From a candidate division WOR-3 bacterium (GTDB lineage Bacteria > Hydrothermota > 32-111 > QNBC01), in NCBI GenBank assembly GCA_015486655.1, contig WFRF01000194.1, positions 1 to 30,661 on the forward strand: a DNA stretch of 30,661 nucleotides, in the 5' to 3' direction. Below, piece by piece: positions 5,962 through 16,842 of this stretch; the first letter of the stretch is position 1; each line of letters opens with the position of its first letter. The notes under the pieces are model-generated. The model did no database searches. It was not told the origin of the DNA and was given only the letters and a program-made list of their open reading frames with translations. Both the position numbers and the translations under genes were made by a program.

Positions 5962-8773
5962 GATCATTTTTCTGGTCTTATTATTTTCATTACCCATGTC
6001 CGGCGTTTTTGGACAGTATTTCGGGAAAAATAAAGTTAAATATAAAAATATGCATTGGAAAATGGTGGAAACTCCCCATTTCAACATATATTATTACGAA
6101 GGGGGAGAATATCTTGCTGAGTTTGCCGCTAATATAGCTGAGGACTCATACAGGGAGATTTCGGATAATCTGTCCTGGGAGTTGAAGAGGAAGGTACCTA
6201 TTTTAATTTATGATTCGCATAATGATTTTGAACAAACCAATGTAACACCGGGAATAATCGAAGAACAGGTGGGAGGATTTACCGAAATTTATAAGAGCAG
6301 GGTTGTGGTTCCATTTGACGGTTCTTATGAGGAGTTTAGGCATGTTATTAATCATGAACTGACGCATGCTTTCCAATATGATATACTGTACGGGAAGAAT
6401 TTGGCGGGGAATATAGTGACTCAGGTTACCACAAACGTCCCTTTATGGTTTATGGAAGGGATGGCGGAGTATGAATCGAGATGGATGGATCCGGAAACGG
6501 ATATATTTATGAGAGATCTGCTTTTAAACGGACAGTATGTTAAAATACAGGATCTGTGGATGTACGGAGGTTACTTAATCTATAAAGAGGGGCAGATGAT
6601 AGAATATTATCTTACCCGGACGTTCGGTAAAAAAGTACTTGGGGATATATTGTTTAAGTGTAAAACAGAGAAATCATTTGAAAAAGCCGTGCAAAGTTCA
6701 ACGGGGCTTACACTTAAACAACTTGATGAGGAGTTCCAGGATTATCTTAGAAAACGTTACTTTGGTTATTACGATAAAAAATCCGAATATAAAGATTTCA
6801 GTACAAGGCTTACAAAATGTGACAGTACCTATTTTCTAAATGCAGGGGGTTCTATTAGTCCCGACGGAAATTATGTTGCCTTTTTCTCGGACAGAACGGG
6901 AAGATACAGTGTATTTCTAAAAAACATATTCACTGACAAAACACATTTAATTATTGGAGGGGAAAAGACAAGGGACTATGAACAGATGCATATATTACGA
7001 CCGTATATCGGATGGTTCCCGGACAGCAAAAAATTCGCATTTATAACAAAAGCCGGAGCCAAAGATTGTATACACATTTACAGTTTATCCAAACACAAGG
7101 TTATTAAAAGGATATCGTATAATCTTAATGCAATGTATTCTCCTTCGATTTCACCAAACGGTAAAAAAATTGTTTTTACCGGAATAAACGACGGAATGGA
7201 AGATATCTATATCACGGATCTGTCCAATACAAAGGAATACGAGAGGTTAACATTCGATAAATATGATGACAGAGAGCCGGTATTCTTAAATGATTCCATT
7301 TTAATATTTGTATCAGACAGACCCATTGGGAAAACAAAGGAATGGAATTACGGTAATTATTCAATATGGGCATTTAATTTGAATAACGACTCAATGTTCA
7401 CTGTAATGTCGAGAAAATTCCACAATATATCAAAACCTGCCGTTTATAAGGATAATATCTATTTCACGAGTAATGATGAAGGGTTTGGAAATATATTCAG
7501 ATTATCTTTTACAACGGGTAGAGTAACCAAAATTACGGATGTTCTTTTCGGAATAAGTAATATAAGTATTTCCGGAGATGGGAAATGGTCCGTTTTTGAT
7601 GGGGTAAAGGGAATGCGAAAAGATCTTTACCTGCTTAAAAATATCGAAAGTCTCGGCGAGAAACAGTATTCGCAGGTCTCTTATGTCACAAGATACACCA
7701 AGAATGTAGGGCTGCATTATAAAAAAACAAAGGCAAAAACTGTTTTTAGTGCGGATATAATGACAGGGTATCTCGGATACTCCTCTTACGGGGGAACATT
7801 CGGACAGGGTATTTTCCTGTTCTCGGATCTTTACGGGGACAATGAACTCCTCGCTCAATTGGATTTGGGAAGTTACAATATAATGAACGGTAATTACTAT
7901 TTCCAATACATGAACAGAAAATTCCGATTCAATTTGGGCGTGGCATTAAGCAAGTATAATGATGTTTATTACTATTCAAGCCCCATTGCGGCGGTGGTTA
8001 AAAATACATATGGAATATCGGGGTATGCGGACTATCCTTTTGATAAATATACTAGGATTGAACAAACAATAAACTATAATTACTATGTTGATTCTCTCTA
8101 CATTTACTATCCCGAAGAAGGACAATATTTCCTCTCGGGAAGTTATTCCTACCATGGATTGTATCCCGGGGTTGCATTTGTTTATGATGATGCACTCGAC
8201 AGTTATATGGGATATATTTCGGGAAATTTATTCAGGTTGGATTTACAAAGATCACTTGTCTTTAACGGCAATATGATGGATTTCTATTATATTTTCCTCG
8301 ATTACAGACATTATTCAACATTTTTTAAAAAATACACTTTGGCCACAAGGGTGATTGGCGATGCCGGCGGCGGTTTGGATGCAAACAGATTTACTGTTAG
8401 CGGCGCAGACGGTTTAAGAGGATTTGATTACGGTGAAGTTAACGGCAAGTATGTCTGGTTAATACAGAATGAATTGAGATTCAGATTATTAAAAGACATA
8501 ATTTTTGATAATCCCATACCGATCAAATTCGGCAGCGTATACAGCGCCCTGTTTCTTGATATGGGGAGCGGATTTAATGACTTTAATGCGTACCAGCCAT
8601 TTTCCAGAAGCACAAACGGATGGCAATTGGAAGATATTAAAGCCGATGCAGGCATAAGTTTCAGAATCAATCTCGGAATCACGCTGCTTCAGTTTGATAT
8701 AACAAGACAATTGAATCTGATGCACCTGGAAGGAAACACGAGATACACGTTGAAACTTGGGGGACTATATTAG
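5909..8773 (+). CDS. Outer-membrane Omp85-family protein with N-terminal MA-clan peptidase domain and PD40/TolB-like propeller
   Basis: SD AAGGAG 5895-5900; signal-like segment then QYFGKNKV; HELTH plus downstream PLWFMEGMAEY; PD40-like repeats (ISPDGNYVAF, WFPDSKKFAF, ISPNGKKIVF, ISGDGKWSVF); C-terminal LRGF and FLDMG Omp85 motifs ending ...LGGLY. Confidence 0.8.
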   Translation: MRYLSESLSGSYSASFSKIIFLVLLFSLPMSGVFGQYFGKNKVKYKNMHWKMVETPHFNIYYYEGGEYLAEFAANIAEDSYREISDNLSWELKRKVPILIYDSHNDFEQTNVTPGIIEEQVGGFTEIYKSRVVVPFDGSYEEFRHVINHELTHAFQYDILYGKNLAGNIVTQVTTNVPLWFMEGMAEYESRWMDPETDIFMRDLLLNGQYVKIQDLWMYGGYLIYKEGQMIEYYLTRTFGKKVLGDILFKCKTEKSFEKAVQSSTGLTLKQLDEEFQDYLRKRYFGYYDKKSEYKDFSTRLTKCDSTYFLNAGGSISPDGNYVAFFSDRTGRYSVFLKNIFTDKTHLIIGGEKTRDYEQMHILRPYIGWFPDSKKFAFITKAGAKDCIHIYSLSKHKVIKRISYNLNAMYSPSISPNGKKIVFTGINDGMEDIYITDLSNTKEYERLTFDKYDDREPVFLNDSILIFVSDRPIGKTKEWNYGNYSIWAFNLNNDSMFTVMSRKFHNISKPAVYKDNIYFTSNDEGFGNIFRLSFTTGRVTKITDVLFGISNISISGDGKWSVFDGVKGMRKDLYLLKNIESLGEKQYSQVSYVTRYTKNVGLHYKKTKAKTVFSADIMTGYLGYSSYGGTFGQGIFLFSDLYGDNELLAQLDLGSYNIMNGNYYFQYMNRKFRFNLGVALSKYNDVYYYSSPIAAVVKNTYGISGYADYPFDKYTRIEQTINYNYYVDSLYIYYPEEGQYFLSGSYSYHGLYPGVAFVYDDALDSYMGYISGNLFRLDLQRSLVFNGNMMDFYYIFLDYRHYSTFFKKYTLATRVIGDAGGGLDANRFTVSGADGLRGFDYGEVNGKYVWLIQNELRFRLLKDIIFDNPIPIKFGSVYSALFLDMGSGFNDFNAYQPFSRSTNGWQLEDIKADAGISFRINLGITLLQFDITRQLNLMHLEGNTRYTLKLGGLY

Positions 8774-8774
8774 T

Positions 8775-9191
8775 TTACAGCAGTTCAACTTCGTAAGTTA
8801 AATTGACTCCTCCGTTTTTCAGCATTGCGGAAACGGAACAATACTTATCCTGAGAAAGATTTACCGCTTTTTCTATTTTTGTCCTGTCGTTTTCAGATGC
8901 ATGCATTCTGTATTTAAGATGGATATCCGTATAAACCTTTGGGTGTTCGGGGGCTTTTTTATATGTTATTTCTATCTCAAAATTTGAATACCGGACCTGC
9001 ATTTTATTCATAATTGACAATACATCTATTCCCGTACAACCTCCCAGGGAATGAAGGAGTAGTTCCATGGGCCAAACAGCACTATTTGTACCGTTTTGGT
9101 AGTTTGAATCCATAACAACGGAATGTCCTGAGGGGCCAAGTCCGATAAGTCTGTAAATATCAACATTTTTTACTATTACTTTATTTTCCAT
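8775..9191 (-). CDS. OsmC/Ohr family protein (YhfA-like)
   Basis: PMELLLHSLGGCTGIDV and KYCSVSAML with the two conserved Cys; SD GGAGG upstream. Confidence 0.9.
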   Translation of the reverse strand: MENKVIVKNVDIYRLIGLGPSGHSVVMDSNYQNGTNSAVWPMELLLHSLGGCTGIDVLSIMNKMQVRYSNFEIEITYKKAPEHPKVYTDIHLKYRMHASENDRTKIEKAVNLSQDKYCSVSAMLKNGGVNLTYEVELL

Positions 9192-9212
9192 ATAACCTCC
9201 TTACTCTTTTGA

Positions 9213-9240
9213 ATTATACAATAATAATTGAGAATTTCAA
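9213..9240 (-). promoter_or_regulatory. sigma70-like promoter for the OsmC gene
   Basis: Minus strand TTGAAA (9240-9235), 16 nt, TATAAT (9218-9213). Confidence 0.55.
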
Positions 9241-9308
9241 GCTGATGTTTGTGTATTGCCCTTTTGCAAAGAGGTACTGCGAAACAGTGGTATGTTTTTC
9301 TCCTAATA

Positions 9309-9657
9309 TGTCATTCTGAACTCGTTTCAGAATAAAGCTACATTATTGAATTCCCCTCGGCAAGAGGGGTGGGCTAACGAATGTTAGGACGGGGTGTTCT
9401 AAAATAAGTAAGAACTGAGAAATTAAAAGTGAGAAGTGGGAACTGAGAACTAAGAATTTAAATCGGAAGTGATCTTATTATATTTATCTCTTAAAATGAC
9501 CCCTCAGCCCGGCAAAACCGGACAGCTCCCCTTAAAGTGGAGCAGCTATGTTCAGAAATAAATGGGAATAGGGGATTGAGAAATTAAATATTTAATTGCT
9601 TTTATTGAATTCTCTTTATTTCTTACTTATTATGTCTATGCTACCTACATTATCTAC
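9309..9657. repeat. Composite intergenic repeat element, copy 1 (GTCA hairpin, CCCCTC/GAGGGG double hairpin, heptamer array, inverted CCCC module, TATCTAC end)
   Basis: 9309-9333 matches 19530-19554 at 24/25. 9340-9409 aligns with 19586-19653. Seven heptamers at 9409-9457. Ends in TATGTC...TATCTAC like copy 2. Confidence 0.85.
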
Positions 9658-9711
9658 TCGAATTTTTATTTTTGACTTGATTTTTTGTGTGATTGTATTA
9701 TTAAATAGTAG

Positions 9712-9739
9712 TTGAAAAAAAAATATTATGTGCTATAAT
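9712..9739 (+). promoter_or_regulatory. Extended -10 sigma70-like promoter for the sucCD-like/kor operon
   Basis: TTGAAA (9712-9717), 16 nt, TATAAT (9734-9739) preceded by TGc; SD AGGAG 9749-9753. A second candidate is TTGACT 9672-9677, 18 nt, TATTAT 9696-9701. Confidence 0.65.
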
Positions 9740-9758
9740 CCACGCTATAGGAGTTAAT

Positions 9759-10604
9759 TTGGAAAGGTTAGCCGAGATTTTTTTGGAAATGGGGTATAGA
9801 CGATTACCCGCTATGACGGTTACTTCCGTTGAAGGGATAAAGGGCTTTATCGAATTATACGAATATCCTGTTTTTATTGAGGTTGGAAAACACCAGTTCG
9901 TCGTAAAAGATCAAATGAGTGTTGAAGCCTTCGATAAAGTTAAAATAGATGAAGCATTTGTAAAAAAATATTTTGAGAACGGCATTGGTCTTGAAATAGA
10001 ATATCATTCCGAGTATAACATTGTTTCCCTTGTTATCGAAAAGGGAGATAAAAAGGCCGATTTTCAATTAAATCCTCTTGTATCGCTTACGGCATACAAA
10101 ATAAAGAAGAATGCCCCGGAGGTCGGGGATTTTGTGGAGCAGATATGCGACTGCTATAATATGTTTTTGGATAATAATTATAAATCAATGTTAATAGATC
10201 TGTACAGGGAAAAGGGTGAAATATACTTTTCCTTAAGAAAAATGGACAAAAAAAGGGATGAGAGTTATGATGACATAGCGATTATTTACAATGTTAAAAC
10301 CGCCGGGGAGTATGTAAATGATCTTTTCAAACGGTACGGAAAACATGCTCATCTTGTTCCCATTGACCGAATTGAGAATGCACTGTCCCATTCTACGCAT
10401 ATTTTTATAATTATTGTGAATGACAGTGAGTCAAAAACCGAAAAGTATATGGATATTCTTCGTAATATCTCTTCATTTGAAAAACAATTTTACTGCATGT
10501 TTGAAGGGATTGATGACAAAAAGGTTAAGGGAATGCTTATGAAAAATAATATTATTTTCATGAATGATCCTTATACCTTTATTAAAACTGTAATCAACGG
10601 ATAG
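9759..10604 (+). CDS. Highly degenerate succinyl-CoA synthetase beta-subunit-like protein (catalytic motifs absent)
   Basis: Colinear resemblance to SucC by eye: EIFLEMG..VTSVEG..YPVFIEV; LNPLVSLTAYKIKK vs LDPLTGPMPYQGRE; DDIAIIYN..YVNDLFKRYG vs GNIGCMVN..TMDIVKLHG; FEGIDDKKVKGML vs LEGNNAELGAKKL. TTG start with SD. Position before a SucD-like gene supports the call. Confidence 0.65.
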   Translation: MERLAEIFLEMGYRRLPAMTVTSVEGIKGFIELYEYPVFIEVGKHQFVVKDQMSVEAFDKVKIDEAFVKKYFENGIGLEIEYHSEYNIVSLVIEKGDKKADFQLNPLVSLTAYKIKKNAPEVGDFVEQICDCYNMFLDNNYKSMLIDLYREKGEIYFSLRKMDKKRDESYDDIAIIYNVKTAGEYVNDLFKRYGKHAHLVPIDRIENALSHSTHIFIIIVNDSESKTEKYMDILRNISSFEKQFYCMFEGIDDKKVKGMLMKNNIIFMNDPYTFIKTVING

Positions 10605-10610
10605 GAGTAT

Positions 10611-11363
10611 ATGAAAGCATTAGAACTTCTCGATGAAAACAGCAGGGTAATTTATATCGGAGAAAATTCCGATACCATATACTCCAATGTGAAATTCGAT
10701 AAATACGGTTCATTATCCAAGAATCTTGTTTTTGAACGGTACGATCTGTGGTACATTGAAAATTTTATAAAGGATGAAAACGATATTTTGGAAATAATAG
10801 ATTCCAAACCGAAAATAATAATCTTTGGTAATACCGTTCTAAACGAAATTTATAAGAGAAGGATTGCTCAATTTTCTATTTTTAAGAAAGTTCCCATATT
10901 AGGGCCGCATTCGAGCGGTGTTTTTACAAATAATTTCTATTTTGGTAAAATAAACCCCGCTTTATTTAAAAACAGAACGGGAGTTTGTGTTATTTCCAGC
11001 AACCAGTATATACCGTATATGATTGAAAAAGAATTAGCCTGGTATGATTGGGGAATTTCACAATGTGTAACCATCGGTTCGGGAGAGGGCTTACTTACAT
11101 CATATGAGGGAACGCTTGATAAAGTATGTGACGTAAATAGTTGTGTGGGTGTTATTTTACACATTGATTTAAACAATTATATACTACCTTCAATAGCAAA
11201 TTACATAAAAAAGAATTTTCATAAACCTATAATTGTTTTTGTGACGGGGAGAAGTGAATTTCCCGTTAAAGGTTATGAGCTTGTCAAATATTTTCGTGAT
11301 GTTAATATAGATGTTGCCCTTGATATAGGGGAAATTGTTAAAATGTTGAAGAAGATAATTTAA
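10611..11363 (+). CDS. Highly degenerate succinyl-CoA synthetase alpha-subunit-like protein (phospho-His loop absent)
   Basis: LLDENSRVIYIG vs LIDKNTKVICQG; VPILGPHSSGVFT vs VRMIGPNCPGVIT; GVCVISS vs VGIVSR; WGISQCVTIGSG vs FGQSTCVGIGGD; NYIKKNFHKPIIVFVTG vs AYIKEHVTKPVVGYIAG. No MGHAGA. SD AGGAG 10603-10607. Confidence 0.8.
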   Translation: MKALELLDENSRVIYIGENSDTIYSNVKFDKYGSLSKNLVFERYDLWYIENFIKDENDILEIIDSKPKIIIFGNTVLNEIYKRRIAQFSIFKKVPILGPHSSGVFTNNFYFGKINPALFKNRTGVCVISSNQYIPYMIEKELAWYDWGISQCVTIGSGEGLLTSYEGTLDKVCDVNSCVGVILHIDLNNYILPSIANYIKKNFHKPIIVFVTGRSEFPVKGYELVKYFRDVNIDVALDIGEIVKMLKKII

Positions 11364-11374
11364 GGAGATGTATA

Positions 11375-11623
11375 ATGGCTAAATTCAATATTTTTGTTGA
11401 AAACAGGTTGTGCAAAGGTTGTAGCTTATGTGTTTCGGTTTGTCCTAAAAACGTATTGGAACTGGATCCGTTAACGGATAAATGTATACCCGTTAGACAG
11501 GATGACTGTATAGGGTGCAAAATGTGTGAAAATATGTGTCCTGATTTTGCAATAGCAGTTGAACCGGAGGGAAAGGACAGCCCTTATAATGGAATAAGGT
11601 TGAAATCAGAACAGGAAGATTGA
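11375..11623 (+). CDS. korD: 2-oxoacid:ferredoxin oxidoreductase delta subunit (2x[4Fe-4S] ferredoxin)
   Basis: CKGCSLCVSVCP and CIGCKMCENMCP; directly before korA. Confidence 0.88.
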   Translation: MAKFNIFVENRLCKGCSLCVSVCPKNVLELDPLTDKCIPVRQDDCIGCKMCENMCPDFAIAVEPEGKDSPYNGIRLKSEQED

Positions 11624-11670
11624 TCTGATAATGAAATGAAAAGGTATGTATAATATAAACAGGAGCTTTT

Positions 11671-12798
11671 ATGAGTAATGCGAAATTGGTTCAGGGAGAT
11701 ATAGCATGTGCTATGGGTGCTATTGATGCCGGTTGCAGGTTCTTTGCCGGTTATCCGATTACACCTGCATCAGATATAGCAGAAGAGATGTCCAAATTGT
11801 TGCCCATGGTCGGCGGAAAATTCATTCAAATGGAAGATGAGATTGCAAGTATGGCGGCAATAATAGGCGGGAGTCTTGCCGGAGCTAAATCAATGACAGC
11901 AACCAGTGGTCCCGGATTTTCGTTGAAACAAGAAAATTTGGGATTTGCAATAATGGCTGAGATCCCTACTGTAGTCGTCAATGTACAGAGAGGGGGACCT
12001 TCAACAGGTTTACCGACCCTTCCATCACAGTCAGATATGATGCAGGCAAGGTGGGGAACGCACGGCGACCATGAAATAATTGCAATTATTCCTTATACCG
12101 TCGAAGAAGTCTATTATGAAACGATAAGGGCTTTTAATCTCGCTGAAATGCTTAGAACCCCCGTTATTTTACTAATGGATGAGGTAATAGGGCATATGAG
12201 CGAAAATTTCAAAAGACCGGACAAGAGCAAAATAGAAATAATAAACAGAAAATTCCCTACAAAAACCCCGGAAGAGTATTTTCCCTATGATGAGAATGAA
12301 GGTCTTGTACCACCTCTTGCCCCCTTCGGAAAGGGATACAGATATCATGTTACCGGTTTGGCGCATGACAAAACAGGTTTCCCTTCAACACACGAAGAAA
12401 GTGTAAAGAGGCTTATGGAACGCATGAGGGACAAAATACTGAATAATCGGGCAATAATCGATAAGTGTGATATCAGAAAAGAGGGGAATGAGGAGATAGG
12501 CATTTTTGCATATGGAAGCTCAGCGAGAACATCAATTGAGGCAATTGATAATTTGAAGGAAAAAGGAATCGATGTGGCATTGATGAGACCTGTTACCATA
12601 TGGCCGTTTCCCAAAGAGCAGTTGCTCGAATTTGCCAAAGGCTTAAAGAAAATCGTCGTTCCCGAAATGAATTTTGGTCAGATTGTCGGAGAGGTAAAAA
12701 AATATTTAAGCGATGATGTTGAAATTATTCCGCTTAACAAATATACGGGCAGACTTATCACTCCCGAAGAGATAGTAGATAAGATTTTGGAGGGTTAG
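11671..12798 (+). CDS. korA: 2-oxoacid:ferredoxin oxidoreductase alpha subunit
   Basis: FFAGYPITPASDI, QMEDEIAS, TSGPGFSLKQE, QRGGPSTGLPT motifs. The 2-oxoglutarate specificity is inferred. Confidence 0.93.
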   Translation: MSNAKLVQGDIACAMGAIDAGCRFFAGYPITPASDIAEEMSKLLPMVGGKFIQMEDEIASMAAIIGGSLAGAKSMTATSGPGFSLKQENLGFAIMAEIPTVVVNVQRGGPSTGLPTLPSQSDMMQARWGTHGDHEIIAIIPYTVEEVYYETIRAFNLAEMLRTPVILLMDEVIGHMSENFKRPDKSKIEIINRKFPTKTPEEYFPYDENEGLVPPLAPFGKGYRYHVTGLAHDKTGFPSTHEESVKRLMERMRDKILNNRAIIDKCDIRKEGNEEIGIFAYGSSARTSIEAIDNLKEKGIDVALMRPVTIWPFPKEQLLEFAKGLKKIVVPEMNFGQIVGEVKKYLSDDVEIIPLNKYTGRLITPEEIVDKILEG

Positions 12799-13626
12799 AT
12801 GGATACAGATACAAAACTTAAATATCTTAGAACGGAAAAACTGCCACATATATGGTGCCCGGGATGCGGACACGGAATTATATTGGGAGCATTACTGAAG
12901 AGTTTTGATAAATTGGGATGGGAGAAGAATGACATAGTAGTCGTATCCGGAATCGGTTGTTCGGGGAGAACCCCCGGCTATATAGATGCCAATACGCTGC
13001 ACACTACACATGGAAGAGCGTTGGCTTTTGCAACGGGCATAAAAATGGTAAACCCAGCATTACACGTTGTAGTAGTTATGGGTGACGGTGATGCATCTGC
13101 AATAGGAGGGAATCATCTGATTCATGCTGCCCGAAGAAATATAGATCTTACCGCAATCGTTTTTAACAACAACATATACGGTATGACCGGCGGACAATAC
13201 TCACCTACCACTCCTTTCGGTGCAAAAGCCAGTACGGCACCCTACGGAAATATCGAACCGAATTTTGATCTCGTGGAACTTGCCATGGGGGCAGGAGCAA
13301 CGTATGTTGCAAGAGCGACCTCCTACCATGAGGCGATTCTTGAAAAATATATACAAAATGCGCTTCTGCACAAAGGTTTTTCATTCATCGATGTATATAC
13401 CACATGTCCGACACAATTCGGCAGATTGAATAAAATTAAATCTCCTATTGATAATATTTTCATGTTGAGGGATAAAGCGATCATGAAATCAAAAGCGGAG
13501 AAAATGTCGCCTGAAGAGATAAAAGGAAAGGTTTTAATAGGTGAGTTTCGTAATGACAAAGAGAAACGTGAATATACGGAACTTTATGATGAGATTATAC
13601 GCAGAGCGACGAAAAAGGAGATGTAG
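12799..13626 (+). CDS. korB: 2-oxoacid:ferredoxin oxidoreductase beta subunit (TPP-binding)
   Basis: WCPGCGHG, SGIGCS, HGRA, GDGD...NNNIYGMTGGQYSPT. Confidence 0.93.
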   Translation: MDTDTKLKYLRTEKLPHIWCPGCGHGIILGALLKSFDKLGWEKNDIVVVSGIGCSGRTPGYIDANTLHTTHGRALAFATGIKMVNPALHVVVVMGDGDASAIGGNHLIHAARRNIDLTAIVFNNNIYGMTGGQYSPTTPFGAKASTAPYGNIEPNFDLVELAMGAGATYVARATSYHEAILEKYIQNALLHKGFSFIDVYTTCPTQFGRLNKIKSPIDNIFMLRDKAIMKSKAEKMSPEEIKGKVLIGEFRNDKEKREYTELYDEIIRRATKKEM

Positions 13627-14157
13627 ATGAAACTGGAAATTAGACTTTGCGGCTTTGGCGGGCAGGGATTAATTCTTGCCTCTAAATTGTTGTCGCAGGC
13701 TGCTATTATAGACGGAAAAATTGCGACACAATATCAGACATACGGAGCGCAGGTGCGTGGCGGAACGGTAAAAGGGGATGTTGTAATTTCAGATAAACGA
13801 ATTGACCACCCTACCGTAATTAAACCGGATATGTTGGTGATTATGAGCCAGGATGCATATAAAAAATACGGAAATTTTGTTAAAGACGACGGGATTATTA
13901 TAACGGACCCTTTTTATGTCAAAGGAATTGAGAGAGAACATATAGAAGTGCCTTTTTATGAAACCGTTAAAGAAGAATTACACTCCACATTACCTTTGAA
14001 TATGATGATTATTTCCTTTTTAGCAAAATACACAAATACTGTTTCCGAAGAGTCCATTAAAAAGGCAGTTCTTGAGAAGATACCGCCACATACCGTGGAG
14101 ATTAATACAAAAGCTCTTGAAATAGGTGCAGAGTTTGGTGAAAAATTCAAAAAATAA
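13627..14157 (+). CDS. korC: 2-oxoacid:ferredoxin oxidoreductase gamma subunit
   Basis: IRLCGFGGQGLIL, YGAQVRGG; abuts korB. Confidence 0.92.
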   Translation: MKLEIRLCGFGGQGLILASKLLSQAAIIDGKIATQYQTYGAQVRGGTVKGDVVISDKRIDHPTVIKPDMLVIMSQDAYKKYGNFVKDDGIIITDPFYVKGIEREHIEVPFYETVKEELHSTLPLNMMIISFLAKYTNTVSEESIKKAVLEKIPPHTVEINTKALEIGAEFGEKFKK

Positions 14158-15802
14158 AATAGTGATTACTTTTAACGGTAAAAATTACGAGTTTCATGCT
14201 CCCGTAAAAGGAACAGAACTTGCGAAAACTATCTTTGAAGGGAAAAAAGGTGACGTTGTCGCAATAATTAAGGATAATCACTATATCCGTTTGAATGATA
14301 CAATAGAGGGTGATGCAAACGTGGATTTTGTCTATCTGAACAGTGTAAAAGGGATGCGTATATACACATCAACACTGTTTCTCGTTCTCCTGAAATCCTT
14401 TTATGAGTTGTATCCCAACGGAGATTTGATAATTGACCATTCCATATCAAAGGGATACTACTGTTTCGCTGAAATCGGACGTGTTTTTGACTCCCGAGAT
14501 ATTAAGAAATTAAAATCGAGGATGAGCGAGCTGATTGATAAAGATATACCAATCGAGAGTTCGAGAATGGGTGTGGAAGAGGCAAGGGAACTGTTTAAAT
14601 CGAAGGGTTATTTCGATACATACGAGTTGCTTAAGTATAGAAATTCAGGTGCGATTGATGTTTATTCGTTGAAGGATAACTGCGAGTTTTATACGGAACC
14701 GCTTCTCCCGTCTACGGGATATGTTAAGGATTTTGATTTAAGAGCATACCCTCCTGGGTTCATTTTACGGGTGCCATATTATACAAATAACGGAAAAATC
14801 CCGGAATTCAAAGAGGAGAGGAAGCTTTTTACCATATTCAGAGAAACTTTTTACAGGAACAAAATAATCGGTATAAGCAACGTTGTTGAGTTGAATAAAT
14901 CCATTGAAGACGGTAAAATAAGCGATATTGTAAAAATATCAGAGGCATTTCACGAGAAAAAGATACATGATATTGCAAATGAAATCAATTCAAGAAGAAA
15001 TTATCTTAAATTTGTTCTCATATCCGGACCTTCATCGTCGGGTAAAACGACATTCTCAAAACGCTTATCAATTGCTCTTAAATTGTATGGAATCAATACA
15101 ATTACAATATCGCTTGATGATTATTTTCTTGACAGGGACAAAACGCCTAAAGACGAGAACGGCAATTACGATTACGAATCGTTGTATGCACTTGATCTGA
15201 ATCTTTTTAACGAACAGATATTCTCACTTTTAAGAGGAGATGAAGTTGCTTTACCTAAGTTTAATTTTAAACTGGGGAAACAGGAATTCGGCAAGAAGAT
15301 TAAACTTGAAAAAAATCAGATGTTGGTAATCGAAGGAATTCACGGACTTGATCCCAAACTGACAGAACAGATACCCGGTTATTTGAAATTTAATATATAT
15401 GTCAGTGCACTTACACAATTGAATTTGGATTACCATCACAGAATGCCCACCACCGATGCTCGCATACTGAGAAGAATCGTAAGAGATAATCTTTACAGAG
15501 GACATTCGGCGCTTGCAACAATTCAAATGTGGGCGAGTGTGAGGAAGGGAGAAGACAGGAATATATTCCCTTATCAAGAAAATGCGGATGTAATGTTTAA
15601 TTCCGCTCTCAGCTATGAATTAGCAGTTTTGAAAAGAAAGGTGGAAGGACTTTTGCTTGAGATAGATGATTCAAGTCCGGAATATCCCGAAGCTCAGCGA
15701 TTATTGCAACTTCTCAGTTTTTTCAAAACAATTGACGATAAAGAGGTCCCGCCGACATCAATATTAAGGGAATTTATAGGCGGTTCAAGCTTTAAATATT
15801 AA
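14138..15802 (+). CDS. Nucleoside (uridine) kinase family protein with N-terminal TGS/ThrRS-N-like domains
   Basis: P-loop ISGPSSSGKTT, SLDDYF, IEGIHGL, RRIVRD...RG; N-terminal half resembles the ThrRS N-domain. Start uncertain (GTG 14138 chosen; ORF opens at 14126). Confidence 0.85.
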   Translation: MKNSKNKIVITFNGKNYEFHAPVKGTELAKTIFEGKKGDVVAIIKDNHYIRLNDTIEGDANVDFVYLNSVKGMRIYTSTLFLVLLKSFYELYPNGDLIIDHSISKGYYCFAEIGRVFDSRDIKKLKSRMSELIDKDIPIESSRMGVEEARELFKSKGYFDTYELLKYRNSGAIDVYSLKDNCEFYTEPLLPSTGYVKDFDLRAYPPGFILRVPYYTNNGKIPEFKEERKLFTIFRETFYRNKIIGISNVVELNKSIEDGKISDIVKISEAFHEKKIHDIANEINSRRNYLKFVLISGPSSSGKTTFSKRLSIALKLYGINTITISLDDYFLDRDKTPKDENGNYDYESLYALDLNLFNEQIFSLLRGDEVALPKFNFKLGKQEFGKKIKLEKNQMLVIEGIHGLDPKLTEQIPGYLKFNIYVSALTQLNLDYHHRMPTTDARILRRIVRDNLYRGHSALATIQMWASVRKGEDRNIFPYQENADVMFNSALSYELAVLKRKVEGLLLEIDDSSPEYPEAQRLLQLLSFFKTIDDKEVPPTSILREFIGGSSFKY

Positions 15803-15804
15803 AT

Positions 15805-16842
15805 TTAAGCCAACCTTTTAATCCTTTCGAAATCGGCTTTAACCATAATGTTGACCAGTTCTTCAAATGTAATTTTGGGTTTCCACCCAAGTTCCGTTTG
15901 AGCTTTACTGCTGTCCCCTATAAGTATATCTACCTCCGAAGGCCTGAAGTAACGGGGATTAACACCGATTATCTCTTTACCCGTGTTCTTATCTATTCCA
16001 ACCTCGTTAACACCTTCTCCTTTCCATTCTATTTCAATGCCTAAAGCTCTGAACGTGTGCTCGCAAAATTCTCTAACCGAATGCGTTTCCCCCGTTGCTA
16101 TGACGTAATCATCCGGGGTTTTGGACTGTAACATAAGCCACATCGCATAGACGTAATCTTTTGCGTATCCCCAGTCCCTCTTTGCATTGAGGTTACCGAG
16201 GAATAATTTATCCTGTAATCCCAGTTTAATTTTAGAGGCGGAAATTGTTATTTTTCTTGTAACAAAATTTTCCCCGCGTCTAGGGGATTCGTGGTTAAAT
16301 AATATGCCGTTTACGGCAAACATATTGTATGCTTCCCTATAATTTTTAACTATCCAGTAACCGTATAACTTCGCGACACCGTAAGGACTTCTGGGGTAAA
16401 ACGGTGTTTTTTCCGTTTGAGGAATTTCCTGCACTTTCCCGTATAACTCCGAAGTCGAAGCCTGGTAAAATTTTGTATTAACACCTGTTTCCCTTATTGC
16501 GTCTAGAAGCCTGAGAACACCTACGGCATCTGTTTCTGCGGTATATTCCGGTACCTCAAATGAAACTCTTACATGGCTTTGAGCGGCGAGATTGTATATT
16601 TCATCGGGGTTCACCTTCTCGATTATCCTATTTAAATTGCTTGAGTCGGTCATGTCTCCGTAATGCAGAAAAAAAGTCTTATTGTAGAGTTCACGATTCA
16701 TTGTCAGGTGATCGATTCTCTGCCTGTTTAGGCTTGAGGAACGTCTTATTATACCATGAACTTCGTATCCTTTTTCCAATAGCAATTCTGCCAGATAACT
16801 GCCGTCCTGTCCCGATATGCCTGTGATTAGAGCTTTTTTCAT
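15805..16842 (-). CDS. gmd: GDP-mannose 4,6-dehydratase
   Basis: [53 protein letters not shown]. Confidence 0.97.

Follow-up and report, generated by a model that had tools for sequence, protein, structure and literature searches.

We describe here a pair of adjacent genes, derived from sucC and sucD and stripped of the catalytic elements of succinyl-CoA synthetase (SCS; CoA, coenzyme A), at the head of a korDABC operon for a 2-oxoglutarate:ferredoxin oxidoreductase in an uncultured candidate division WOR-3 bacterium (GenBank assembly GCA_015486655.1). The genes lie at positions 9759 to 11363 of a stretch of 30,661 nt (contig WFRF01000194.1, positions 1 to 30,661 of the forward strand), referred to as the window; their products are called the beta-like and the alpha-like protein. 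Homology to SucC and SucD, motif loss, purifying selection and conserved synteny are documented by computation. Very probably, the pair is a selected, SucCD-derived heterodimer that is dead as an SCS, its loss of activity being read from the sequence. By its homology, its missing catalytic elements and the selection that acts on the degenerate state, it is a pseudoenzyme of predicted inactivity. Such an SCS-derived two-subunit pseudoenzyme is new and rare, restricted so far to two genera (g1, comprising the window and G002, and g2, comprising G003 and G004) of one family, f1, of candidate division TA06. The explanation that on balance we favour for the whole is a non-catalytic, SCS-derived heterodimer, accessory to the oxidoreductase. 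The pair and the kor genes that follow it are listed below, with the evidence for each.

9759..10604, + strand: SucC-derived beta-like gene, 281 amino acids, TTG start (ORF list, Foldseek, hhalign, dN/dS)
10611..11363, + strand: SucD-derived alpha-like gene, 250 amino acids, ATG start (NCBIfam, PDB, hhalign, AF2 model, dN/dS)
11375..11623, + strand: korD/oorD-type 2x[4Fe-4S] ferredoxin subunit (Pfam Fer4_7; NCBIfam OorD, E 3.4e-15; synteny)
11671..12798, + strand: korA, 2-oxoacid:acceptor oxidoreductase alpha subunit (NCBIfam PRK08659, 557 bits, above the cut-off; Pfam POR_N and PFOR_II)
12799..13626, + strand: korB, thiamine pyrophosphate-binding beta subunit (Pfam TPP_enzyme_C; NCBIfam 2-oxoglutarate ferredoxin oxidoreductase beta, 342 bits, cut-off 364)
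13627..14157, + strand: korC, gamma subunit (Pfam POR; NCBIfam gamma subunit, E 4e-49)

A preliminary description of the window had placed two intact open reading frames (ORFs) of 281 and 250 amino acids ahead of korDABC, had aligned their products by eye and colinearly with SCS beta and alpha, and had named motifs lost from each of them. The ORF list and the Pfam and NCBIfam scans agree with the first statement, and the colinear alignment proves right for both proteins by Foldseek, by structure alignment (VIA) and by hhalign, the likeness being well beyond chance. The losses named for the alpha-like protein (the phospho-His loop, GEIGG and the CoA-binding segment) are each seen in alignment A5 (see below), and those named for the beta-like protein (VKxQV with the Gly-rich loop, EINP and NGAGL) are all seen in the hhalign alignments.

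Homology to succinyl-CoA synthetase and loss of its motifs

The alpha-like protein is recognised by the NCBIfam SucD models (E 1.9e-9) at about a tenth of their cut-offs, with 37.2 and 36.8 bits versus 336 and 353 (TIGR01019 and PRK05678). Against the SCS alpha chains in the PDB, the E value is 7.5e-7 for the single sequence and 9.1e-11 for a profile, while a six-sequence alpha-like profile aligns with a TA06 SucD profile over residues 46-250 on 71-288 (hhalign 98.4%, E 1e-14). The AlphaFold2 (AF2) model of the alpha-like protein (predicted local distance difference test, pLDDT, 86.6) matches E. coli SCS alpha (2nu9_A) with a Z score of 25.6 and a root-mean-square deviation of 2.5 Å over 244 of its 250 residues; the input alignment contained SucD rows, so that this fold match and the sequence homology are not independent lines of evidence. 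In the predicted model, both domains of the SCS alpha fold are kept. An ESM Atlas feature search with the alpha-like protein yielded weak CoA_binding/Succ_CoA_lig clusters only (at most 0.85), and a Pfam scan of both proteins of the pair gave noise only.

The beta-like protein is the more remote of the two. As a single sequence it has no match in Pfam, NCBIfam or the PDB; the exhaustive HMMER pass over 1.84 billion representative proteins retrieved the protein itself and one sister-genus cluster only; a TIGR01016 search of the window's genome does not pick up its gene; and the ESM Atlas feature search returned nothing usable. In Foldseek, SCS beta and ATP-citrate lyase account for all of the 21 top matches of its predicted model, aligned from end to end (E 2.8e-10 to 2e-6), followed by other ATP-grasp enzymes that match the N-terminal half only. 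The confidence of the model is low when predicted alone (pLDDT 57, from three sequences) and higher in the complex prediction (pLDDT 81). Structure alignment with VIA gives a Z score of about 10, with residues 8-281 on 12-393; generic flavodoxin-like folds score equally for the C-terminal domain alone, so that this comparison, made with a low-confidence model, is insufficient by itself. Profile comparison with 27 TA06 SucC sequences gives an E value of 2.6e-4 (hhalign, 42%), colinear over 2-280 on 6-374, the full colinear alignment being obtained in local mode at low mact; the cross controls stand at 0.65 (beta-like versus SucD) and 0.22 (alpha-like versus SucC). In the PDB, the beta-like profile finds the ATP-grasp enzyme PurK (E 0.0016), with a gap of six residues at the Gly-rich loop. 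The predicted architecture of the beta-like protein, a degenerate ATP-grasp domain followed by a C-terminal flavodoxin-like domain, is that of SCS beta.

The mechanism of SCS requires an ATP-grasp site, a swinging phospho-His loop and a CoA/succinate site. Alignment A5 consists of 20 rows, five of alpha-like proteins and 15 of canonical TA06 SucD. All 15 canonical rows have the phospho-His loop (K-R-M-G-H-A-G-A...G-T-A), which carries the phosphorylatable His of SCS alpha (His246 of the E. coli protein). In all five alpha-like rows the loop has been removed by a deletion of 15 residues, which leaves SEFPVKG. A second deletion, of 27 residues, takes out the Gly-rich Q-G-I-T-G-R-D-G loop, helix A, strand 2 and G-V-T-P-G, that is, the beta-alpha-beta unit which in SCS holds the ADP part of CoA; in the alpha-like model, residues 13-49 form short strands only. 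Elsewhere in A5, GEIGG has become H-I-D-L-N-N, with an Asp at the position of the catalytic Glu, SRSGTLTYE has become SSNQYIPYM, I-T-E-G-I-P has become I-F-G-N-T-V-L, and G-P-N-C-P-G has become G-P-H-S-S-G.

In the beta-like protein, the hhalign alignment shows that the V-K-x-Q-V...G-G-R-G-K-A-G-G stretch is deleted and the ATP-grasp lysine replaced, that E-I-N-P, the source of Mg ligands in SucC, is aligned with L-I-D-L, and that a Ser is aligned with the Asp of the L-D-x-K strand. At site I, N-G-A-G-L-A-M corresponds to N-V-K-T-A-G-E and N-I-F-G-G-I to V-N-D-S-E, in which both Asn alone are kept. The SucC residues kept in the C-terminal domain are N178, D188, K191, G194 and N221. In so far as this can be judged by sequence, the pair is incapable of the SCS reaction, because the ATP-grasp, phospho-His and CoA/succinate sites have all been removed.

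A repositioned catalytic His is judged unlikely. The sole invariant His of the alpha-like protein, H184, is fixed in the strand ahead of the former GEIGG position, and no nucleotide site is left to which it could shuttle. The His found in the shortened loop occurs in g2 only and is not conserved in g1.

Conservation, predicted heterodimer and synteny

Orthologues of the pair are present at eight loci, namely the window, G002, an ENA contig, a Logan contig, G003, G004 and two JGI contigs, all from hydrothermal-vent or sediment metagenomes; further scans of genomes and metagenome contigs gave no loci beyond the same two genera. The family is narrow, with two clusters at 50% identity among the 1.84 billion representatives. 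The reading frames are intact at all eight loci, without stop codons or frameshifts, and the same motif losses and deletions occur in all the orthologues of both genera. Beta-like orthologues go down to 30% identity to the window and alpha-like ones to 42%, and at overall identities of 30-43%, 62 of 281 beta-like positions (22%) and 92 of 250 alpha-like positions (37%) are invariant.

Ratios of nonsynonymous to synonymous substitution rates (dN/dS) were calculated by the method of Nei and Gojobori for unsaturated pairs of loci, dS being saturated between the genera. For G002 versus L005, dN/dS is 0.079 for the beta-like gene, 0.047 for the alpha-like gene, 0.024 for korD and 0.052 for korA; for G003 versus G004, it is 0.163, 0.091 and 0.075 for the beta-like gene, the alpha-like gene and korD, respectively. 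The ranges (0.08-0.16 for the beta-like and 0.05-0.09 for the alpha-like gene) are similar to those of the kor genes. Both genes of the pair are under purifying selection and are clearly constrained. Their proteins have nonetheless changed two to three times as much as canonical SucC and SucD in the same two genomes (G000, the genome of the window, versus G002: dN 0.31 for the beta-like gene versus 0.12 for sucC, and 0.17 for the alpha-like gene versus 0.08 for sucD).

The two proteins are predicted to associate with each other. With their own six-row alignments, the complex prediction reached an interface score (ipSAE) of 0.86 in each of three runs, versus 0.00 in three controls; among 80 solved complexes, 58 attain the mark used for ipSAE, as do two of 110 mismatched pairs. 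The predicted interface comprises beta-like residues 179-197, 220-223 and 249-251, and alpha-like residues 113-118, 130-140, 157, 186, 188, 212-218 and 237-239; these blocks correspond to the contact between alpha and the beta C-terminal domain around site I of SCS. Invariant residues are enriched there, both in the beta-like protein (10 of 19 interface residues versus 52 of 262 others, p 0.002) and in the alpha-like protein (14 of 25 versus 78 of 225, p 0.03). That the pair forms a heterodimer is supported by these predictions.

Canonical sucC, sucD, korD and, where the locus reaches that far, korA are contiguous in six other TA06 genomes (L023, L031, L032, L033, L040 and L042), which represent five further TA06 families, one of the genomes coming from the sister family f2. 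In family f1, the degenerate pair is found in the slot that canonical sucCD holds elsewhere in TA06. The pair is the positional descendant of the operonic sucCD, since it precedes korD-korA in the same slot; this origin is argued from synteny because the SucD tree is unable to place the alpha-like clade, which stands on a stem of about 10 substitutions per site and has a deviant composition. The pair always adjoins korD, also in g2, where two fumarate hydratase genes, alpha before beta, split korD from korA (beta-like, alpha-like, korD, the two fumarate hydratase genes, korA, korB, korC). These class I fumarate hydratase subunits (Pfam Fumerase and Fumerase_C) are located between korD and korA at L021:7303-8690 (G004), at L012:1-1193 (G003) and at L081-L086 (f2), and the insertion is absent from the window's genus. 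Most genomes of the sister family f2, among them a genome of two contigs, have korD-fumA-fumB-korA-korB-korC and no pair; canonical SCS was found in one of 14 of them.

The window's genome, a metagenome-assembled genome (MAG) that is 77.5% complete, also contains canonical sucCD, at C50:2253-4258 (429 and 423 bits, above the cut-offs). There (locus L022, C50:53-4258), as in G002, the genes are located directly 3' of a gene for a 667-amino-acid TPR-GGDEF diguanylate cyclase, away from the kor genes that are their ancestral neighbours. In the window's genome, canonical SucD and the alpha-like protein share their last five residues, L-K-K-I-I. In the two g2 genomes, G003 and G004, both of them incomplete MAGs (87% and 84% complete, respectively), no canonical sucC or sucD was found, the only SucD-family match being the alpha-like gene. 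Moreover, neither these two nor G010 and G017 of family f2 yielded sucC/sucD, a CoA-transferase/acetyl-CoA hydrolase (PF13336, PF01144 and PF02515) or an ACD-type ligase (PF13607). All four genomes carry a kor operon, with an apparent gap at the step that handles succinyl-CoA.

The preliminary description had suggested that both subunits lost catalysis together while keeping their frames, and had called for a complex prediction and for a search for canonical sucCD elsewhere in the genome. The motif loss is indeed shared by intact orthologues under selection (eight of eight loci; dN/dS 0.047-0.163), the heterodimer is supported (ipSAE 0.86 versus 0.00 for the best control), and canonical sucCD is found on C50.

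The proposed role and its alternatives

We propose that a kor-linked sucCD would have been disabled in both subunits in the forebear of a single TA06 family, by the loss of everything that deals with ATP, CoA and the phosphoryl group. From beta, the ATP-grasp lysine would have gone together with the Gly-rich loop, EINP and NGAGL; from alpha, the phospho-His loop, GEIGG and the beta-alpha-beta unit for CoA. Both folds, and the contact between alpha and the beta C-terminal domain, would have been retained. A stable alpha-beta heterodimer would be made from a strong promoter, by genes translationally coupled with each other and with korD, and may serve as a non-catalytic accessory, assembly or docking partner of the oxidoreductase encoded downstream; in this way the pair might preserve a physical association that SCS already had with the oxidoreductase. 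Its job is presumably tied to the genes with which it is co-made, above all korD, because folds, interface, operon position and selection persist. That the pair works with the 2-oxoglutarate:ferredoxin oxidoreductase is a tentative proposal, to which the conserved operon linkage points, and which we hold to be possible rather than probable; for the scaffold or regulator of the oxidoreductase suggested in the preliminary description, the basis is again this linkage. We infer that the genes would be expressed and that their products may be in contact with Kor proteins.

Several observations weigh against such an accessory role. In KorA, KorB and KorC, no family-f1-specific insertion that would provide a docking site was found and, among the Kor subunits compared, the f1-specific conserved feature is confined to the tail of KorD. 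The oxidoreductase needs no such partner in general, since f2 runs korD-fumAB-korABC without the pair or SCS, and the occurrence of the pair in g2, where no SCS or CoA-transferase was found, would be compatible with a metabolic role that has been kept. Because solved SCS structures exist, model memory may account in part for the complex score, which would then show likeness rather than binding. As to expression, a read-archive search listed the sequence in DNA runs of a hydrothermal-vent metagenome only, and in no RNA run.

At the C-terminus of KorD (window 11560-11623), the f1 proteins have a conserved tail, S-P-Y ... K ... E-D, in a place where the other TA06 families have variable Lys/Glu-rich tails. 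The f1 tail could be a candidate docking peptide.

Instead of being accessory, the pair could have a rebuilt site I pocket that binds a ligand or performs an ATP-independent dicarboxylate/acyl-CoA conversion, e.g., the hydrolysis or transfer of succinyl-CoA. We consider this unlikely, and to the same degree we doubt that the remodelled pair would supply the succinyl-CoA/succinate step that is missing from lineages without SCS. New residues, invariant across the genera, do occupy the catalytic places of SCS, both in the alpha-like protein (H184, D186 at the Glu208 position, N188, N189 and S130-N131) and in the beta-like protein (E184, Y185, N187, D222 and E224). However, most of these residues lie in the predicted subunit interface, where their conservation is explicable without a ligand, N178, D188, K191, G194 and N221 of the beta-like protein are simply retained from SucC, and, with the canonical CoA-binding unit deleted, a new mode of CoA binding would be required. 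The g2 genomes G003 and G004 carry the pair without a canonical SCS or CoA-transferase (PF13336, PF01144, PF02515) being found, and their operon includes fumarate hydratase, but these MAGs are incomplete, and the same gap in metabolism exists in family f2, from which the pair is absent, so that the gap does not call for it. Decidedly improbable is the more specific version, by which the rebuilt, polar site I (alpha-like H184, D186, N188 and N189 with the five beta-like residues E184 to E224) would be a new active or ligand site for an ATP-independent succinyl-CoA/succinate step or for sensing, coupled to the oxidoreductase and fumarate hydratase. If it were true, site I would represent new chemistry on the SCS scaffold, closing the gap in TA06 lineages without detected SCS or CoA-transferase. 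The earlier idea of a CoA or nucleotide sensor is likewise weakened, because the canonical CoA beta-alpha-beta unit and the ATP-grasp loop are deleted.

The degenerate subunits might also regulate canonical SCS by subunit exchange, the alpha-like protein with SucC or the beta-like protein with SucD forming inactive hybrids. Canonical sucCD and the pair do coexist in g1, and the alpha/beta interface blocks are partly kept from SucC and SucD. Hybrid regulation is nevertheless very unlikely because selection maintains the pair in g2, where no canonical SCS was found; moreover, the degenerate genes are translationally coupled, the model pairs their products with each other, and they are unlinked to the canonical sucCD locus behind the TPR-GGDEF gene. 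Finally, the genes could be functionless relics in slow decay, left open by chance or as carriers of the operon's promoter or translation start. The branch of about 10 substitutions per site that separates them from SucCD marks an extreme divergence, their family is very narrow (two 50%-identity clusters among 1.84 billion representatives), and the sister family has lost them outright. We nevertheless give this next to no credence and reject simple decay: dN/dS is 0.05-0.16 (0.047-0.163 unrounded) with saturated dS between genera, none of the eight loci has a stop or frameshift, and invariant residues make up 22% of the beta-like and 37% of the alpha-like protein at 30-43% identity.

Relation to known systems and neighbouring features

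Compared with SCS proper (SucC/SucD, EC 6.2.1.5; E. coli 1jkj and 2scu, Campylobacter jejuni 6mel), the pair has the same beta-alpha gene order before korD/oorD, the alpha fold, the beta architecture of ATP-grasp and C-terminal domains, and the predicted alpha/beta interface; it also retains GP..G, the K-P ahead of the last strand, and the five beta-like residues N178, D188, K191, G194 and N221. Unlike SCS, it is without the phospho-His loop, the CoA unit, GEIGG, SRSG, the ATP-grasp Lys and Gly loop, EINP, NGAGL and the GG-I loop, and the alpha-like and beta-like proteins are shorter by 38 and about 100 residues, respectively. As an operon, the locus resembles the OorDABC/KorDABC operons preceded by sucCD, with the order sucC-sucD-korD-korA that is canonical in six TA06 genomes and, as sucC-sucD-oorDABC, is presumably also that of C. 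jejuni. It differs from them in that the f1 slot holds the degenerate pair and that g2 has fumarate hydratase genes between korD and korA. The one paper that a literature search found to contain both gene names is on Caminibacter (PMC3236049). Citryl-CoA synthetase CcsAB and ATP-citrate lyase are likewise SCS-derived two-subunit modules in clusters of the tricarboxylic acid (TCA) type, and are among the structural matches (6hxq, 6hxj and 6znw); these enzymes are active, with phospho-His, CoA and ATP-grasp sites of which the pair keeps none.

The closest precedent for a dead module of this superfamily that has been repurposed is the protein Pat/PatZ (YfiQ) of Salmonella and E. coli, whose N-terminal NDP-forming acyl-CoA-synthetase-like domain is without the critical His and unable to make acyl-CoA (PMC3195501). 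Like the pair, it is a His-less, non-catalytic module, and the PatZ chains 9isq and 9it0 are among the structural matches of the beta-like C-terminal domain (Z 8.5-8.9). Unlike the pair, Pat is a single chain fused to a GNAT domain, belongs to the ADP-forming acetyl-CoA synthetase branch and still handles acetyl-CoA; here, two separate subunits have degenerated together, the CoA unit is also lost and the genes stand in an oxidoreductase operon. SCS is a central enzyme that has been studied intensively. In a full-text literature search, no report of an SCS pseudoenzyme or of a His-less SucCD pair was found, and nothing relevant came up on channelling between SCS and 2-oxoglutarate:ferredoxin oxidoreductase or on TA06 metabolism.

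The distribution of the pair provides a natural experiment: other TA06 families keep an active pair in the same slot, most genomes of the sister family are without it, g2 has the predicted dead pair alone, and g1 has it together with an active copy elsewhere. This raises the question of whether SCS has a structural role beside catalysis, e.g., in contact with the oxidoreductase, in organisms with a sucCD-korDABC operon. For annotation, an alpha-like protein mislabelled as SucD could wrongly complete the TCA cycle in metabolic reconstructions of TA06, and the beta-like protein has no detectable family.

Further features at both ends of the operon are as follows.

9712..9739, + strand: putative sigma-70-type promoter, TTGAAA-16 nt-TATAAT with TG extended -10 (top-scoring site of the region scan, 11 of 12 matches; consensus match only)
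9749..9753, + strand: Shine-Dalgarno sequence AGGAG, 5 nt ahead of the beta-like TTG start (sequence reading)
14126..15802, + strand: 558-amino-acid protein with a C-terminal uridine-kinase/PRK-type P-loop domain (Pfam PRK, E 2.9e-19; NCBIfam uridine kinase, E 1.9e-21, below the cut-off)

The promoter-like site ends about 20 nt 5' of the beta-like start codon. The alpha-like gene has a Shine-Dalgarno sequence AGGAG that overlaps the beta-like stop codon, the gap between both genes being 6 nt, and in the orthologous loci they overlap by 4 or 14 nt; korD and korA also appear from sequence reading to have good Shine-Dalgarno sites. Judged from gene spacing and these signals, the layout from the beta-like gene to the kor genes is that of one operon with translational coupling. 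The gene for the 558-amino-acid protein overlaps korC by 32 nt, and no Pfam or NCBIfam match was found for the N-terminal 270 or so residues of its product. It is located 3' of korC in all family f1 loci of sufficient length, and not so in family f2.

An Rfam scan of 8700-16000 gave no RNA family. Upstream of the operon, a divergent OsmC gene is separated from it by an unusually long, AT-rich spacer of 567 nt (9192-9758), the length of which varies between the orthologous loci. A repeat scan of the spacer found nothing beyond short AT-rich matches; the spacer includes a GC-rich hairpin near 9355-9375 and imperfect direct repeats of 23 nt at 9406-9428 and 9434-9456. Within the beta-like coding region, at 10114-10128 on the + strand, a GC-rich hairpin followed by a T-run resembles a terminator, probably as a chance match.

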